From NCBI GenBank assembly GCA_937870865.1, contig CALMZY010000386.1, forward strand, positions 1-48,254: a stretch of DNA of 48,254 nucleotides, read 5' to 3'. The notes beneath the pieces are model-generated. The model saw only the letters and a list, made by a program, of their open reading frames with translations. It was not told the DNA's origin and made no database searches. Shown in pieces: positions 24,508-46,091 of this stretch. The DNA comes from an uncultured Lentisphaerota bacterium. GTDB taxonomy: Bacteria; Verrucomicrobiota; Kiritimatiellia; CAIQIC01; JAGNIJ01. Positions within the stretch are counted from its first letter, which is position 1. Each line of letters opens with the position of its first letter. Position numbers and translations under genes: made by a program.

Positions 24508-25131
24508 ATGAGGCGAAAGGCTTTTGTTGTCTTTGGGGTGCTGCTCCAAACCTCTTTCTTTACCGGCTGCGCTTCGCGCGGCCCCATCGTCTATCAACCT
24601 CCTCCGCTGACTGCCGCCGAACGGGAGGAGATCCAGACTCGCACGTTCGACACGAACTTCGACACCGCGTTCTCCGCCGTGATCGCCGTCCTCCAGGATA
24701 ACGCCTGGGACATTCAGGATGTTCAGAAGGACAGCGGCCTGATCATGGCGTACACGAAGAAACGTCCGGACACGATCGGGCCTTCGGAGGACTGGCGACG
24801 GGATCACGACGCGAAGAAGAGGGCGAAGCCCCGGAAGGAAGGCGACGAGTCGATCATCAACCAGTGGACGCGCTGGGAAAAGCTGACCGCGCACATCGAG
24901 CCCTGGGGCGGCGGCCGGTCGCGCGTCCGCATTTCCATCGTCAATTTCGGCGCGCTTCCCGCCGTGACCTACAGCTACCCGGTCAACTCCCTCTTCACCC
25001 GCAAGAACATCACGGTCAACGCGCAGGCCACGGAAGAGCAGGTGGTGGTCGAGGATCCTGTGCCGTACACACGGGAATTTTCGAAGATCGAAAAGGCGGT
25101 TGAGGACCGCCAGAAGAACGCATCCCAGTAA
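24508..25131 (+). CDS. Lipoprotein of unknown function (locus gene 1)
   Basis: GGGGGAGG RBS. The signal plus lipobox is MRRKAFVVFGVLLQTSFFTGC. The mature part has an alpha/beta pattern (FDTAFSAVIAVLQDNAWDIQDVQKDSGLIMA) seen in many small envelope lipoproteins. Confidence 0.7.
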   Translation: MRRKAFVVFGVLLQTSFFTGCASRGPIVYQPPPLTAAEREEIQTRTFDTNFDTAFSAVIAVLQDNAWDIQDVQKDSGLIMAYTKKRPDTIGPSEDWRRDHDAKKRAKPRKEGDESIINQWTRWEKLTAHIEPWGGGRSRVRISIVNFGALPAVTYSYPVNSLFTRKNITVNAQATEEQVVVEDPVPYTREFSKIEKAVEDRQKNASQ

Positions 25132-25145
25132 CAGGAGTGGCGCTT

Positions 25146-27599
25146 GTGAAAAACCTTACTGTCCGCATGGTTCTTCCGGTTTTGTTCGCGCTTGCGGCCG
25201 CATTCCTGCCGGGCGGGTGCGCGACGACGGACGAGGCCTACTTTCTGAACACCGAGTCCGAGGCCAACGTGTTCGTCGCGCCGGTGCCGTGCCCGATCTG
25301 GAAAGTGGCGGTCATGCCGTTCAAGGGGCCCACGGACCTGATCGGTTCGTCCGTGTCCGACATGTTCGTCACGGAAATGCTGCGCGCGGGCCGCTATGAA
25401 CTGGTCGAACGCAGCCAGATGTCCAAGGTCCTCAGCGAGTCCGAGCTCTCGCTGGCCGGCCTGTCCCTGTCCAAGGCGACGGAGGTGGGCAGCATGCTCG
25501 GCGCGGACGGCGTGATCATCGGAACGGTGGACGAATACAGCACGGTGGCCTACCGCGGCGCGGCGTTTCCCGTGGTCGGGATCACCGTCCGGCTGATCGA
25601 CTGCAAGAGCGGCAAGGTGATGTGGAGCGTGGACCTCGCCAAGCGGGCGGACAGCAAGAGCGCCACGCTTTCGGAACACGCACGCGATGTCGTTCATGAA
25701 ATGACCGCGGGGCTCTACAAGAAGTGGGGTGTCCAGCGGAAGGTTCCGCGGCCCGTCGAGACGGCCTCGTCGGCCCGCGAGGAATCCCCGGACGCCGTCG
25801 TCGGAATGACCGCGGAACCCGAGCAACCCCCGAAACCGCCGTGCGGCCTGAAACTTTCCGACATGGGCCTGCGCGAAGTCACGATCACGTGGACCGCTCC
25901 GTCCGACAACGCCAGCCAGTTCAAGATCGAGCGAGCGGACAAGGCCGACGGGCCCTTCACGCTTCTGGGCAAGACCTCGGCGGGCCGCGGGGAATACGTG
26001 GACGACGAGGGCCTGGAGGACAGCACCGTCTATTACTACCGCGTGACCGCGGTCTCCGCGAGCGGGCTGCAAAGCGCGCCGTCGGACGTGGTCGAAAGCA
26101 TGACCGCGCCGCCGCCGGAGCCGCCGGCGGACATCCAGGCCGTGCCGGACGGTTCGAGGGCCGTCAAGGTGACGTGGGGCGCGCCGCCGTCGGAAGGCGT
26201 GACCCGGTACATCGTCGAACGCAACGATCCCGACGCGCCGGACCGCTTTATTAAGAGGGGCGAGGTGAAAGGTCTCGTTTTCCGCGAGGGCGGGACGGCG
26301 CAGTCCGATCTGCGGGACGAAACGAAGTACCTCTACCGCGTCACGTCGGTCAACCGCGTCGGGTCCGTCGGCCAGCCGTCGCCGCCGGTCGAGGTCGTCA
26401 CCGAGCCGCCGCCCGCGCCGGTCGCGGACCTGCAGGCCGTCAGCAGCGAGGTGCGATGCGTGCCCCTTTCGTGGAGCCCGAATCCGGAACCGGATATCGT
26501 CCGCTACGACATCTACCGGAAGGACAACGAGGAGACGCCCACCGCCAAAATCGCCTCCGTCAAGGCGCGCGAGACGAAGTACCTCGACGGCGGGCGCGAT
26601 CCGGGCAACCTGGAGGACGATCACACTTACCAGTACGCCATTGTTGCGGTCGACGCCGTGACCGCCGAGAGCAAGAGCTGCTCCCCCGTGTCGGCGACCA
26701 CGCGCAAACCGCCGCCGGTGGTCGAAGGCGTTGCCGCCACGTTCGGGCGGCCGCGGGAGGTGCCCCTGGCGTGGACGGTTTCGCCCGACGAAAAAGTGAC
26801 CGGCTATGACGTCCTTCGCGCCGCGCCCGACGGCGGGGACTTCGCCGTGATTGCGACGGTGAACGGCCGCGAGACCGCCGGATATGTCGACAAGGGCGGC
26901 GCGAAACCGGCGGCCCTTGGCCGGCTTCTCGACGGCACGGAGTACCGGTACCGGCTGGTCGCGTTCAACACCGCGCGCGCCGTGTCCGAGCCCTCCGAAA
27001 TTGTTTCCGCCACGACGAAGTTTGCGCCGGTCGCGCCGATCGAACTGGGCGCGACGACCAACCGGCCCAAGTCGGTGGAGATTTCGTGGAGCCCGAACGC
27101 CGAGATGGACATCAAGGAATACGTGGTCGAATCGGCAGCCGCCGGCACGGCCCGTTTCCGGGAGATCGCGCGCGTGCCTGCGCCGGAAGACGGACAGCCT
27201 TCCGCGACGGAATCGAAACTGCCGGATGGCGCGGGCCGCCTCTACCGCGTCAAGGCGATCGACACGGACACGCTCGAAAGCCCGTGGACGGAGCCGGTTG
27301 AAGGCGCGACCAAGCCTCTTCCTCTCCCGCCGACGGACTTGAAAGCGGAGTTGAACGAGGGCGGCGCCCTGCTGACGTGGACCCCGCCGGATCAGCCGGA
27401 TATCCAGGAGTACAGGATCTGGAAGAAGGGGTTTGTCATGGCCGATCTCTTCACGACGACCGAAGCGTCGGAGTACACATTGTCGTCAGCGGACATTGGA
27501 AAGAAACTGGTGGTCATGGTCAGCGCGGTGGACCAGGACGGCCTGGAAAGCGGGCGCACGGCGCCCGTGGAAATCCGGCCGCCTGCCCCGGAAAAATAA
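25146..27599 (+). CDS. Lipoprotein with an N-terminal CsgG/HfaB/LpoB-like module and six FN3-like repeats (locus gene 2)
   Basis: Lipobox LPGGC. KVAVMPFKGPTDLIGSSVSDMFVTEMLRAGRYELVERSQMSKVLSESELSLAGL...VGSMLGADGVIIGTV fits the CsgG-family signature as I recall it. Six ~95-aa units follow, with W/Y..Y.Y.V.A patterns (e.g. VTITWTAPSDNASQFKIERAD...STVYYYRVTAVSASG). I prefer start GTG 25146, 8 nt after AGGAG; the track uses 25137. Confidence 0.75.
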   Translation: MKNLTVRMVLPVLFALAAAFLPGGCATTDEAYFLNTESEANVFVAPVPCPIWKVAVMPFKGPTDLIGSSVSDMFVTEMLRAGRYELVERSQMSKVLSESELSLAGLSLSKATEVGSMLGADGVIIGTVDEYSTVAYRGAAFPVVGITVRLIDCKSGKVMWSVDLAKRADSKSATLSEHARDVVHEMTAGLYKKWGVQRKVPRPVETASSAREESPDAVVGMTAEPEQPPKPPCGLKLSDMGLREVTITWTAPSDNASQFKIERADKADGPFTLLGKTSAGRGEYVDDEGLEDSTVYYYRVTAVSASGLQSAPSDVVESMTAPPPEPPADIQAVPDGSRAVKVTWGAPPSEGVTRYIVERNDPDAPDRFIKRGEVKGLVFREGGTAQSDLRDETKYLYRVTSVNRVGSVGQPSPPVEVVTEPPPAPVADLQAVSSEVRCVPLSWSPNPEPDIVRYDIYRKDNEETPTAKIASVKARETKYLDGGRDPGNLEDDHTYQYAIVAVDAVTAESKSCSPVSATTRKPPPVVEGVAATFGRPREVPLAWTVSPDEKVTGYDVLRAAPDGGDFAVIATVNGRETAGYVDKGGAKPAALGRLLDGTEYRYRLVAFNTARAVSEPSEIVSATTKFAPVAPIELGATTNRPKSVEISWSPNAEMDIKEYVVESAAAGTARFREIARVPAPEDGQPSATESKLPDGAGRLYRVKAIDTDTLESPWTEPVEGATKPLPLPPTDLKAELNEGGALLTWTPPDQPDIQEYRIWKKGFVMADLFTTTEASEYTLSSADIGKKLVVMVSAVDQDGLESGRTAPVEIRPPAPEK

Positions 27600-45060: not shown

Positions 45061-45179
45061 GAGCCGGTTCGCAATCCCATGGAGGCCATGACGCGAGTTG
45101 TTGTGCGGAAGCAAGGAAGGACCTCTGCGGGCCTTTTCATTGTACAGCCGCCTTGTCCGGCGCACATCGATCAGCCATC

Positions 45180-46091
45180 ATGGGCGCCAAGCGTCTTCGG
45201 ATAGTTCCCGGCATGTATATTCGCTTGTCATGGGGGTTGCTCGCGTTATGGCTGTGCGCAGGCGCATGCTCTGCAGAAGCACCATCACAGCCGGCGCCTG
45301 AAAACGGCACGTGGACCGAAGTCGACAAGGCGCGCCTCGACCTGGACGCGGTGACCGAGCGCGGCCGGCAGATCCTGGAACTGCCCGGCATCGACTGGAA
45401 GCACGCGCAGACGCGGCACTTCGTCATTCATTACGAGCAGGCGATCTTTGCCCGGAAGGTCGCTCGCATGGCGGAGTTTTTCTACTCGTACATCGCGCAG
45501 GATCTGCAGGGCGCGCAGGACCACGTCAACGGGCGGTCGCACATCTTCATCTTCCGCTCCGAGAAGCGCTGGCGGGAGTTCCTTCAGACCATGGGGGATG
45601 TGCCGGACTGGATCTTTTCGCAGGTCTCGGGCACGGTCATGTTCCTCCAGCAGGCGGAGAACACCTCTTCCAGCGGCGACGTGCTGGCGCACGAGACGAC
45701 GCACCTGGTCGTCAACCGCTTTTTCAAGAAGCGCTGTCCGCTCTGGCTGAACGAGGGGTTGGCCGAGTACTACGGGGAGTTCGCCTACTCGGCGTACAAG
45801 GGCGTCAAGAAGAGCAAGCGCGCCCAGTTCGGCCGGCTGGCGAATCCGTTTCCACTGGATGAGCTGTTCAGCCTCCGGGCCTATCCCCAGGAGGACGCCG
45901 CCGTGCGGTCCTTCTACGCGACGGCCAAGTACGCCGTGGCGTTTCTGCTCCTGGAGTTTCCGCCCGCGGACTTCCTTCCGTTTGTCGAAGACCTGATGAA
46001 CGATGTGGCTCCGGAGAAGGCGCTCCTCAAGAACTACCGCCTGAAATCCATGGACGACTTTCGGAAGCGGTTCAACCGGTTCGCGTCCTGA
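45180..46091 (+). CDS. Exported HExxH metallopeptidase-like protein (DUF1570 / MA-clan-like; locus gene 10)
   Basis: Signal sequence ...RLSWGLLALWLCAGACSAEA. HETTHLVVNRFFKKRCPLWLNEGLAEYYG has HExxH plus a downstream WLxEGLAxY, as in DUF1570-type peptidases from memory. An alternative ATG exists at 45213. Confidence 0.65.
   Translation: MGAKRLRIVPGMYIRLSWGLLALWLCAGACSAEAPSQPAPENGTWTEVDKARLDLDAVTERGRQILELPGIDWKHAQTRHFVIHYEQAIFARKVARMAEFFYSYIAQDLQGAQDHVNGRSHIFIFRSEKRWREFLQTMGDVPDWIFSQVSGTVMFLQQAENTSSSGDVLAHETTHLVVNRFFKKRCPLWLNEGLAEYYGEFAYSAYKGVKKSKRAQFGRLANPFPLDELFSLRAYPQEDAAVRSFYATAKYAVAFLLLEFPPADFLPFVEDLMNDVAPEKALLKNYRLKSMDDFRKRFNRFAS

Follow-up and report, generated by a model that had tools for sequence, protein, structure and literature searches.

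The DNA analysed here (the window, 48,254 nucleotides) carries at positions 24508-46091 a real, undescribed gene cluster that is conserved across Kiritimatiellia. Our preferred interpretation, to which we give a probability of roughly 45%, is that of a class-specific envelope complex, in which an outer-membrane lipoprotein ring platform would receive variable Sec-exported proteins docking by a shared module. Relatives of ring-type outer-membrane lipoproteins are encoded beside rapidly changing exported giants that all bear this module, an arrangement that points to a novel mode of envelope-protein anchoring or export, though not to a curli-type channel. We found no name, NCBIfam model or published description for the system, whose products are annotated as "hypothetical" at most, in agreement with the original prediction. 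Overall, the observations behind that prediction were partly confirmed and its interpretation was partly supported.

Organization and coding potential of the locus

Ten co-directional ORFs were recognized from the ORF list and by reading the sequence:

24508..25131, + strand: g1, 207-aa lipoprotein (lipobox FFTGC), accessory component (ORF and sequence)
25137..27599, + strand: g2, lipoprotein of 820 aa; CsgG/PelC-like alpha/beta domain at the N-terminus, plus six fn3 repeats (Pfam)
27663..28235, + strand: g3, secreted DUF2059 protein (Pfam DUF2059, E 8.5e-13)
28245..32309, + strand: g4, 1354-aa exported protein (ORF, homologue alignment)
32334..36367, + strand: g5, acidic exported protein of ~1344 aa; carries tandem GGPK repeats, the module and Cys knuckles at its C-terminus (ORFs)
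36509..42535, + strand: g6, 2008-aa exported acidic protein (ORF, sequence scan)
42619..43203, + strand: g7, lipoprotein of 194 aa, PelC/GNA1162/CsgG superfamily, barrel hairpins absent (Pfam, PDB sequence search)
43210..44040, + strand: g8, 276-aa secreted two-domain protein, N-terminal domain with a predicted CsgG/PelC/FlgT-N fold (AF2, Foldseek)
44053..45060, + strand: g9, 335-aa secreted protein, invariant partner of g8 (synteny, HMM)
45180..46091, + strand: g10, HExxH (HETTH) protein, lineage-specific neighbour (sequence, synteny)

The coordinates were essentially as predicted, the intergenic gaps were short (5-150 nt), and the genes flanking the locus are chromosomal, with a housekeeping context. 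Across the giant genes g4, g5 and g6, the opposite strand too has open frames of 800-1200 aa, so ORF length by itself is no proof of coding in this DNA. The + strand frames have a GC3 of 0.79-0.88, the pattern of housekeeping genes, which the long antisense ORFs do not show. The ten + strand genes are real and their coding statistics are normal. As anticipated, a plausible signal peptide or lipobox was found at the N-terminus of every product by sequence reading and a hydropathy scan, and Sec export of these products is plausible.

A core conserved with changing flanks

The co-occurrence of these genes extends to related genomes, the core being kept in 61 species-level Kiritimatiellia/PVC MAGs with differing flanking genes, and synteny persists at 45-65% protein identity. 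The g8 and g9 genes are adjacent in 58/58 loci, and a short CsgG-like lipoprotein gene of the g7 type lies directly upstream of g8 in 38 of 55 (17/55 are without it). Upstream genes were counted wherever a species-level locus extended at least 7 kb upstream, which was the case for 38: large variable module-bearing proteins, hereafter cargo, were encoded in 33 of them (1-5 per locus; 5/38 had none within reach), g2 orthologues in 22, and g1 homologues adjoining the short CsgG-like gene in 7. The g1 product gave no match in Pfam, NCBIfam or the PDB. In 17 loci there is an accessory gene for a small, secreted coiled-coil protein resembling Lpp, and no outer-membrane barrel protein or ATPase conserved across the loci was found.

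Could there be no system at all, the giant ORFs being spurious in GC-rich DNA, or the gene order arising by chance or lineage inheritance among unrelated envelope genes? The open antisense frames would fit such a view, which is nevertheless effectively refuted by the housekeeping-like GC3 confined to the + frames, by the synteny maintained despite different flanks and, as described below, by the protein-level conservation of the g4 family and the specific family found by the module HMM.

A C-terminal module is shared by the giants and g9

The three giants had been described as paralogous. BLASTP similarity among them was confined to 150-190 residues at the C-terminus (E 5e-7 to 5e-16), and no profile-profile similarity was detected between their N-terminal 520 aa (hhalign probability <1%), which rules out full-length paralogy. 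Common to all three are only a C-terminal module of ~115 aa and a Gly/Pro-rich tail with Cys knuckles. This module, which had been overlooked and is present in g9 too, is the key unifying feature of the locus:

31428..31778, + strand: module copy in g4 (alignments, HMM search)
35403..35753, + strand: module copy in g5 (alignments)
41714..42064, + strand: module copy in g6 (alignments, AF2 model)
44719-45057, + strand: module copy in g9, its last ~112 residues (cargo-only HMM, hhalign)

An HMM of the cargo modules only matched 60/63 g9 homologues, with 0 matches in a reversed-sequence control, and the g9 and cargo modules were aligned by hhalign with a probability of 97.5% (E 7e-12); their homology is robust. 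The module HMM gave 150 matches among 1.84 billion representative proteins at E<=1e-3: the family is tiny and lineage-restricted. Most full-length module proteins have N-terminal signal peptides, and in cargo the distance from the module to the C-terminus is fixed, with a median of 191 aa. A long polar helix is followed by "SWG" and then by a Gly/Ala-rich amphipathic segment; the AF2 model of the g6 copy has one long helix (pLDDT ~80-85) and then a low-confidence Gly/Ala-rich segment (pLDDT ~50).

Cargo proteins differ in architecture and turn over rapidly

The g4 protein consists of a conserved N-terminal region of ~820 aa, a P/T/G-rich linker, an Ig-like segment, the module, a poly-Gly stretch and two CxxC..CxxC knuckle pairs. 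The entropy of residues 1-820 is ordinary, and their conservation among the 13 homologue clusters (41-84% identity) is high, Cys, Gly and Trp being invariant at many positions. The low complexity ascribed to the giants therefore does not apply to this region. Large parts of g5 and g6 do have a biased composition and are plausibly disordered. Apart from weak rubredoxin-like knuckles, g4 matched nothing in Pfam or the PDB. The g6 protein has several internal tandem repeats, three of which are coiled-coil repeats of ~95 aa; then come the module, a tail rich in Pro and a single Cys knuckle. Its orthologue in locus L009 is 81% identical. In keeping with the lack of recognizable catalytic domains and adhesin repeats noticed before, the giants gave no significant Pfam/NCBIfam domain: the only match above cut-off, Cornifin, is compositional and falls on the GGPK tandem repeats of g5.

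Across loci, the slot between g2 and g7 holds 1-5 proteins of 400-2800 aa, among them the conserved Cys-rich glycine-zipper type represented by g4 and, elsewhere, RHS-shell proteins, a diversity that does not match a uniform set of giant, disordered coat proteins. One module protein resembling a lipase is encoded apart from the core, which in our preferred model fits a trans-acting sorting signal. Rates of evolution differ between core and cargo: at 65% g8 identity, cargo is recognizable by its module only.

Such rapid turnover, with multiple cargo genes per locus, would also suit a polymorphic toxin system, in which the module proteins are antibacterial or anti-host effectors (glycine-zipper pore-formers, RHS-encapsulated toxins, lipases), the module is their recognition signal, g2/g7/g8/g9 form the export or delivery apparatus and the DUF2059 protein is a chaperone or immunity protein. 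Several features are consistent with this. RHS/YD shells occur in the slot (P0161 in L070; also P0193 and P0196), and a GHSLG domain of lipase class-3/Mbeg1-like type is present in two module proteins. In L008, DUF2059 and g4-type genes occur twice as tandem pairs. Finally, g4 contains a hydrophobic segment:

29583..29735, + strand: glycine-zipper segment of g4, aa 447-497 (hydropathy scan)

Its Gly positions are invariant across the g4 family, and motifs of this kind follow the RHS core of P0161 and were observed in ~10/132 module proteins. In Tse5 (an Rhs protein), EsxX and CDI toxins, the C-terminus bears a glycine zipper and acts as a membrane-depolarising toxin (PMC12744356; PMC11630599).

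Nonetheless, we consider toxin delivery unlikely. Toxin-associated domains were found in only ~5 of ~105 module proteins scanned. The glycine-zipper motifs of different proteins show no significant sequence homology to each other, and that of g4 has no significant similarity to RHS C-termini (BLASTP E>=0.04) or to PDB chains; moreover, a Sec-exported pore-former in the producer's own periplasm would be problematic. Conservation near the C-terminus and variability at the N-terminus are the reverse of what classical polymorphic toxins show, and the C-terminal tails are linkers and Cys knuckles rather than enzymes. The g5 and g6 proteins are acidic, repeat-rich or coiled-coil, without a toxin-like part, and no small immunity-type ORFs lie between g4, g5, g6 and g7 (gaps of 24-141 nt).

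The prediction that g3 is DUF2059-like was borne out by Pfam. Its homologues lie directly upstream of a large module protein, mostly of the g4 type, in nine loci (L007, L008, L015, L029, L034, L037-L039), the single exception being a weak match downstream of g8 in L047. This suggests that g3 is a partner specific to g4-type cargo, possibly a chaperone or immunity protein.

CsgG-like lipoproteins lacking the barrel hairpins

The CsgG/LpoB-like modules predicted in g2 and g7 were recovered by Pfam (CsgG above threshold, E 2e-13 and 2.3e-17, respectively; LpoB, E 2e-5 for g7), as were the fn3 repeats of g2 (E 2.6e-38), five being scored by Pfam and the sixth assigned by reading. Searching the PDB by sequence matched g7 to GNA1162 (E 1.2e-3) and PelC (E 0.03-0.15). 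The g8 protein has 411 homologue clusters, all unnamed, with ~55-65% identity across the class. Its AF2 model (pLDDT 83) retrieved the CsgG pre-pore as top Foldseek match, together with LPHT ring, HpaA, GNA1162, PelC, CT253 and FlgT chains (E 2e-6 to 3e-4), and its N-terminal domain is predicted to have the same fold as g7 and the g2 N-terminus. PqiC-, PelC-, LptE- and CsgG-like lipoproteins have a common core, and several form rings that bind partner proteins (PMC13631591).

By analogy with CsgG/HfaB channels, the original prediction suggested lipoprotein-gated export, anchoring and processing of giant disordered coat or matrix proteins. As a curli-like (type VIII) pathway, this would have the lipoproteins themselves form an outer-membrane channel for unfolded giants that build a coat or matrix, with g10 processing them. 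The Pfam and Foldseek matches to CsgG agree with this, and the biased, plausibly disordered parts of g5 and g6 would suit a narrow channel. However, in an alignment with E. coli CsgG, whose barrel is built from the TM1 and TM2 hairpins, g7 and the g2 N-terminus were without the whole of TM2 and 14 residues of TM1. Both have higher scores with GNA1162 and PelC than with CsgG, and are thus nearer by sequence to periplasmic rings that need a separate barrel. Without hairpins, a conserved barrel or an ATPase, a curli-type channel is unsupported. In addition, Pfam detected no CsgE, CsgF, CsgA or CsgB homologues and no amyloid repeats in the locus, and g4 has conserved Cys-rich, apparently folded domains. 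The assignment of g10 as a protease and the processing step fared no better: its Peptidase_MA_2 match is sub-threshold (E 1.8e-3; 18.5 bits, cut-off 32.4), and g10, present only in same-species contigs and the closest relative (L001-L005, L009) and in 0/38 of the species-level loci scored upstream, is outside the conserved core. Altogether, curli-like secretion is very improbable.

A candidate ring platform with docked cargo

In the docking-platform model that we prefer, Sec would export all products and g1, g2 and g7 would be lipidated. In PelC, PqiC, CsgG and FlgT, the alpha/beta fold assembles into oligomeric rings beneath the outer membrane; g2, g7 and g8 carry three versions of it and would form such rings here, with the six fn3 repeats of g2 as a spacer arm. 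The module would be a docking or sorting element attaching g9 and interchangeable cargo to this platform, although self-association or a membrane-active function would be just as likely for it. Cargo N-termini, which vary, and Cys-knuckle tails might then be held at the outer membrane or handed to a further conduit, and g3 may serve the glycine-zipper cargo g4 in the periplasm as its own chaperone or immunity partner. A link between lipoproteins and giants is thus plausible, with display, toxin delivery or scaffolding as candidate roles. Surface exposure of cargo is only putative because no barrel or energy source is conserved. CxxC knuckles are unusual in exported proteins, which counts against the model, as do the 17/55 loci without g7 directly upstream of g8 and the 5/38 without cargo within reach.

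The missing barrel and ATPase would also fit a purely periplasmic scaffold, likened to Lpp, Tol-Pal or flagellar H/T-ring proteins, in which rings and long acidic, coiled-coil and fn3 proteins act as tether or spacer for envelope architecture, with no secretion or display. The g8 conservation and cluster number, as for a housekeeping envelope component, its resemblance to FlgT and LPHT-ring subunits, the housekeeping flanks and the Lpp-like accessory gene point the same way. Yet wholesale partner replacement between related species, RHS shells and lipases are unexpected for structural housekeeping proteins, and the P/T/S-rich linkers and disulfide-rich domains of g4 would be more typical of extracellular proteins. 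We regard this scaffold as distinctly unlikely.

A poly-G tract interrupts g5

The frameshift reported in g5 was confirmed. It splits the gene into two ORFs (32334-35966 and 35882-36367) at the following tract:

35864..35912, + strand: poly-G tract of 19 G, T, 5 G, T, 23 G (sequence reading)

In the conspecific contig L001, g5 is continuous and in frame, and the anchors flanking the tract are 88 nt apart, compared with 120 nt here, the tract being 32 nt shorter in L001. Probably, the tract of this contig either arose during assembly or sequencing or is hypervariable.

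The ten-gene locus and its coding signal

The ten + strand ORFs of the locus (g1 to g10) lie in 24.5-46.1 kb with essentially the coordinates of the original prediction, and are separated by gaps of 5-150 nt. GC3 is 0.79-0.88 in their + frames, as in the housekeeping genes of the window, while the antisense frames show no enrichment. Across the genes for the giants g4, g5 and g6 run - strand ORFs of 811-1198 aa (28260-30695, 31851-35447 and 39092-42448); these combine high GC1 with lower GC3 and are therefore non-coding shadows. In the database record behind L001, a conspecific contig, gene callers had chosen one such shadow (a 710-aa gene, - strand). 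All ten N-termini read as a predicted signal peptide or lipobox on inspection of sequence and hydropathy.

Few of the products could be named. Pfam places a CsgG/LpoB-like domain in g2, together with fn3 repeats, and in g7, and g3 matches DUF2059 (PF09832) above threshold (48.5 bits, cut-off 23.6), a family for which the papers found report no characterised function. NCBIfam names none of the ten products, and PDB sequence searches with g1, g8, g9 and g10 returned only weak matches or noise. The sequence of g10, described as protease-like, contains HETTH and NEGLAEY, candidates for the HExxH and Glu motifs of the gluzincin (peptidase MA) superfamily, but its Peptidase_MA_2 match is sub-threshold (18.5 bits versus 32.4). 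At neither end of the locus did predicted promoters or terminators outnumber those in shuffled sequence.

The g5 gene is split by a near-homopolymeric G tract of ~49 nt (35864-35912) inside a poly-Gly coding stretch. In L001 the tract is 32 nt shorter and g5 is intact, and the frameshift is therefore either an artefact or a hypervariable site. The tract looks like a sequencing or assembly artefact, the alternative being a hypermutable tract.

The giants share a C-proximal module

The three giants had been described as paralogous and low in complexity. Full-length paralogy is contradicted by BLASTP, which links g4, g5 and g6 only over 150-190 C-proximal residues; hhalign likewise found no profile-profile similarity in the N-terminal 520 residues of the giants. 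Low complexity does not describe g4, whose first ~820 residues are strongly conserved in a 13-cluster family; among them are a hydrophobic segment of glycine-zipper type (aa 447-497) and a region rich in Cys. Searched against PDB sequences, the g4 family profile gave weak rubredoxin-like knuckle matches or noise only.

What the giants have in common is a module of ~115 residues with the consensus ...AsTaGDq...A...d.AG.DAq......A..dr.nSWG..lGDav..Gv..G..a.G.afG.aAa..a...IF. It is followed by a variable tail, rich in Gly/Ser and Pro, which in the window holds one to two CxxC..CxxC knuckle pairs. Among 1.84 billion representative proteins, an HMM built from the three copies in the window matched only 150 at E<=1e-3 (77 of these at E<=1e-10). 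Module proteins are 400-2800 aa long, with a median distance of 191 residues between module and C-terminus, and most full-length members start with a predicted signal peptide. AlphaFold2, given a 62-sequence alignment, modelled the module as a single helix of ~70 residues (pLDDT about 80-85) and a low-confidence Gly/Ala-rich segment after it. Judged by this model, the module would seem to depend on partners or a membrane for its folding.

The conserved neighbour g9 carries the same module

An iterative search of the related loci drew in the C-terminus of g9. As the three-sequence HMM had missed g9, profile drift was a concern and was tested with an HMM built from 136 cargo modules only (cargo being the module-bearing proteins encoded between g2 and g7), a reversed-sequence control, a reciprocal g9 HMM and hhalign. 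The cargo-only HMM matched 60 of 63 g9 homologues (58 with E below 1e-6); the matches were full-length and lay without exception at the very C-terminal end. It matched none of the reversed g9 sequences. The reciprocal g9 HMM recovered 74/136 cargo modules, and hhalign aligned g9 with the cargo module over 122 columns (probability 97.5%, E 7e-12). At the level of sequence profiles, these data show that g9 and the cargo carry homologous modules.

Co-occurrence of these genes in related genomes had been set beforehand as a check on the original prediction, and it was found. Homologues of g8 fall into 411 clusters, with identities of about 55-65%; all are annotated as "hypothetical", and the named sources are Kiritimatiellae, Verrucomicrobia or Lentisphaerae MAGs. 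One genome scan, which relied on two peptide patterns and returned only MAGs, yielded 61 species-level loci. In these, g9 directly follows g8 (58/58), a short g7-type lipoprotein gene lies directly upstream of g8 (38/55), and one to five genes for module-bearing cargo lie upstream in 33 of 38. Accessory genes are less regular: among 38 loci, a g2-type lipoprotein occurs in 22, g1 in 7 and g3 in 6. The inclusion of g10 in the system had to be abandoned (0/38 related loci), and the genes flanking the conserved set vary from locus to locus.

Clustering the ORFs of all 61 loci revealed no conserved barrel or ATPase; since the greedy ORF picker also took antisense ORFs, this absence of further components is suggestive and not proof. 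The only extra family was a small secreted coiled-coil protein, present in 17 loci and absent from the window. It has about 100-145 aa and the motif RLDxLExRLG...PPS...ERRLxDLExRL...RVRKLE, is encoded after the cargo and before the short CsgG-like gene (L013, L014, L018, L020, e.g. 8816-9250, L022, L023, L025, L030 and others), and may be an Lpp-like accessory. Two MAGs labelled Desulfobulbus (L048, L049) hold a canonical locus whose g8 is about 57% identical to that of the window; mis-binned Kiritimatiellia contigs are a more likely source than a genuine presence in Desulfobacterota.

g2, g7 and g8 resemble PelC/CsgG-fold proteins, and g2 and g7 lack the CsgG barrel hairpins

CsgG contributes two transmembrane beta-hairpins (TM1 and TM2) per subunit to a 36-strand barrel. 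Both g7 and g2 match the CsgG family (PF03783; 63.5 and 50.5 bits, cut-off 20.8), and do so at profile positions of about 35-159 of 210 only. Aligned with CsgG of E. coli K-12, g7 and the N-terminus of g2 have a 14-residue deletion in the TM1 hairpin (VKSGGVGARYFGIGADTQYQLD) and no counterpart of the TM2 hairpin or the C-terminal helix; mature g7 has about 170 aa, compared with 262 aa in CsgG. The curli-type channel originally proposed does not survive this comparison, as both of its defining barrel hairpins are missing. Pfam and NCBIfam scans of all ten products likewise gave no match to CsgE, CsgF or the amyloid subunits CsgA/CsgB with their Q/N-rich repeats.

The best sequence match of g7 is GNA1162 (E 1.2e-3), with PelC chains weaker (E 0.03-0.15). 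The LpoB equivalog (TIGR02722) scores 25 bits for g7 and 19 bits for g2 against a cut-off of 110.55, and the Pfam LpoB match of g7 is marginal (24.9 bits versus 22.3). Although Pfam finds nothing in g8, its AlphaFold2 model (pLDDT 83) was informative: in Foldseek the N-terminal domain matched CsgG pre-pore chains at the top, PelC (E 2e-5 to 5e-4, target TM-score about 0.5), GNA1162, HpaA, Chlamydia CT253 and FlgT/LPHT-ring chains. Among 26 diverse g8 homologues the most invariant stretch is a charged beta-hairpin (residues ~96-117, window 43495-43560; KPSARRIAESNLRTY; VGEAVAKPSARRIAESNLRTY); it sits at the position of the CsgG TM1 hairpin and is a candidate interaction site.

FlgT and the Vibrio flagellar H/T-ring proteins are periplasmic ring builders in which an N-terminal TolB-N/CsgG-like domain is joined to further domains. 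g8 aligns with FlgT and an LPHT-ring chain over about 290 columns with low TM-scores (0.34-0.37), and the neighbourhood holds no flagellar genes.

PelC itself forms a 12-mer periplasmic ring and works with the barrel/TPR protein PelB and the pel polysaccharide genes. PelC and GNA1162 (DUF799) are small lipoproteins of the outer membrane that have about 150-170 residues when mature, an alpha/beta core and no membrane hairpins; g7 may be of this kind. The partners differ: PelB and pel genes were neither found by Pfam in the window locus nor conserved in the 61 loci, and the partners here are proteins with a dedicated module, one ring-fold domain being fused to six fn3 repeats. Curli CsgG and HfaB resemble the present system in the CsgG domain of g2 and g7 and in having Sec-exported clients encoded beside the lipoprotein; they differ in that barrel hairpins, CsgE/F-like partners and amyloid subunits are absent here and the clients are 400-2800 aa long and partly folded.

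PqiC-, LptE-, PelC- and CsgG-like lipoproteins have been grouped as one alpha/beta core with varied oligomers and mechanisms (PMC13631591). In the same work, PqiC/PA3214, an outer-membrane lipoprotein of this fold superfamily, forms a ring that holds the helical C-terminal end of a long partner in the periplasm (PMC13631591). The PqiABC ring capping the MCE needle offers the closest parallel to the proposed docking of a helical C-terminal module in a lipoprotein ring, although no sequence relationship to PqiC/PA3214 was detected, the MCE domain, PqiA and the ABC component are absent, and the partners are hypervariable instead of one conserved needle.

Cargo turns over rapidly around the module

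In the closest species g8 is 89% and g6 81% identical, and at 65% g8 identity the cargo is recognisable through the module alone. Nearly all of about 105 module proteins scanned with Pfam were dark. The exceptions were RHS/YD-shell proteins, two lipase class-3/Mbeg1-like proteins and one zinc ribbon. One RHS protein (P0161; RHS_repeat E 2e-113) occupies precisely the cargo position of a canonical locus (L070), while Pfam finds no RHS/YD repeats in g4, g5 or g6. A 2813-aa module protein heads a four-cargo locus (L073). Some cargo is dispersed: an orphan lipase class-3-like module protein (GHSLG; L071 6054-8309) has no core genes (g7, g8, g9) within 6-7 kb, its neighbours being a TrkA_N/RyR protein and a radical-SAM gene. 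In nine loci (L007, L008, L015, L029, L034, L037-L039) a DUF2059 gene lies directly 5' of the gene for a large module protein, of the g4 type or another, in L008 as two such pairs in tandem, and one weak DUF2059 match lies downstream of g8 in L047.

The RHS shells in the cargo slot, the lipase-like module proteins and the glycine zipper of g4 raise the possibility that cargo proteins act as toxins or effectors. They recall Rhs and glycine-zipper depolarising toxins such as Tse5, EsxX and the CDI ionophores, and the RHS, lipase-like and glycine-zipper cargo may be compared with the membrane-depolarising Tse5 and EsxX (PMC12744356). There is, however, no detectable homology to these toxins, and cargo has Sec signals in place of the trafficking domains of T6SS, T7SS or CDI. 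Toxin-like parts are missing from most of the cargo, g5 and g6 among it; no variable C-terminal toxin domain was seen in g4-g6, whose tails are Gly/Pro linkers plus Cys knuckles. Nor does the window show the adjacent immunity gene pattern: immunity-sized ORFs are absent, and the gaps separating g4, g5, g6 and g7 (24-141 nt) leave no room for them. Glycine-zipper hydrophobic segments occur both in g4 and after the RHS core at the motif level; homology of the g4 region with RHS C-termini was considered and dropped, the similarity not being significant.

A possible sorting or display platform

The analysis shows that the gene set is conserved, which folds it contains, that the modules are homologous, that cargo turns over and that the CsgG hairpins are missing. 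The best-supported reading is an outer-membrane-associated platform of the PelC/CsgG-fold proteins g2, g7 and g8. Its invariant module-bearing subunit would be g9, and interchangeable Sec-exported proteins would attach to it through the same module. We infer that the ring-fold proteins form rings, that they are localised at the outer membrane, that the module docks there and that g3 has a role. A purely periplasmic scaffold would be consistent with the lack of a conduit, but it is a misfit with the wholesale replacement of partners between species.

Extending the platform reading, we give roughly three chances in ten to the possibility that g2/g7/g8/g9 and the "helix-SWG-Gly/Ala" module form an unrecognised system with which the Kiritimatiellia (PVC superphylum) sort, secrete or display proteins. 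Hairpin-less PelC/CsgG-fold rings would then be its base and an internal C-proximal module its cargo signal, and the fast-evolving cargo would include RHS-shell, lipase-like and glycine-zipper (possibly pore-forming) proteins. The logic resembles that of T9SS CTD cargo and SLH-anchored S-layer proteins, with a Sec signal, a variable body, a shared conserved C-proximal domain and cargo genes mostly near the machinery and sometimes dispersed. The differences are that neither sequences nor components are homologous, that outside g9 the module is internal (about 190 aa before the end), and that it is predicted to be helical, unlike the T9SS CTD beta-sandwich. NCBIfam and Pfam gave no match to the T9SS CTD (TIGR04183, TIGR04131), and the loci hold no Por or SLH genes.

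In keeping with the original prediction, no name, curated model or paper was found for the gene set or the module, and literature on CsgG, secretion systems and lipoproteins in Kiritimatiellae/Kiritimatiellota, and on DUF2059 and CsgG-like or PelC-like proteins in general, yielded no description of it. The ring-fold lipoprotein is a known building block; to our knowledge the combination seen here is not, with three ring-fold proteins, a stalk of fn3 repeats, g9 and a cargo module of its own. Kiritimatiellia are widespread polysaccharide degraders, mostly uncultured, and almost nothing is known of their envelope biology. A class-wide gene set that couples ring-fold lipoproteins to interchangeable exported proteins via a private module would add a new use of the CsgG/PelC/PqiC/LptE fold. 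If docking is true, the module is a new cargo tag and a class-wide surface or effector repertoire becomes readable from genomes; if the sorting reading is true as well, this is a new envelope trafficking pathway with its own tag. In either case, the module HMM and the g8-g9 pair offer a testable handle on hundreds of "hypothetical" giant proteins.

Surroundings of the locus

The locus is flanked by ordinary chromosomal genes (RarA, RNase Y, XseA, HtrA-like protease, NAD kinase, GH10 xylanase, LarC, TrpE/G/F and ATCase). Individual features are as follows.

804-995, +, full-length 6S/SsrS RNA gene (Rfam RF00013, 66.3 bits, E 5e-11)
1019-2371, RarA/MgsA-like gene, with the 6S/SsrS RNA gene directly upstream
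9762-11654, -, GH10 xylanase with a CBM60 module
23058-23501, Laminin_G_3/concanavalin-like ORF (147 aa, no signal peptide), the sole ORF of 22000-24480

The xylanase with its CBM60 fits the life of polysaccharide degradation that Kiritimatiellia are expected to lead. Over 22000-24480 GC falls to 0.53, and the ~1 kb between the Laminin_G_3-like ORF and g1 holds no convincing ORF; this stretch could be what remains of a gene, or it could be regulatory. On the 3' side (46242-47330 and beyond) are two consecutive genes of the aspartate/ornithine carbamoyltransferase family, the second cut by the window end; the corresponding pair in L001 encodes 361 and 313 aa (L001 13036-15157).
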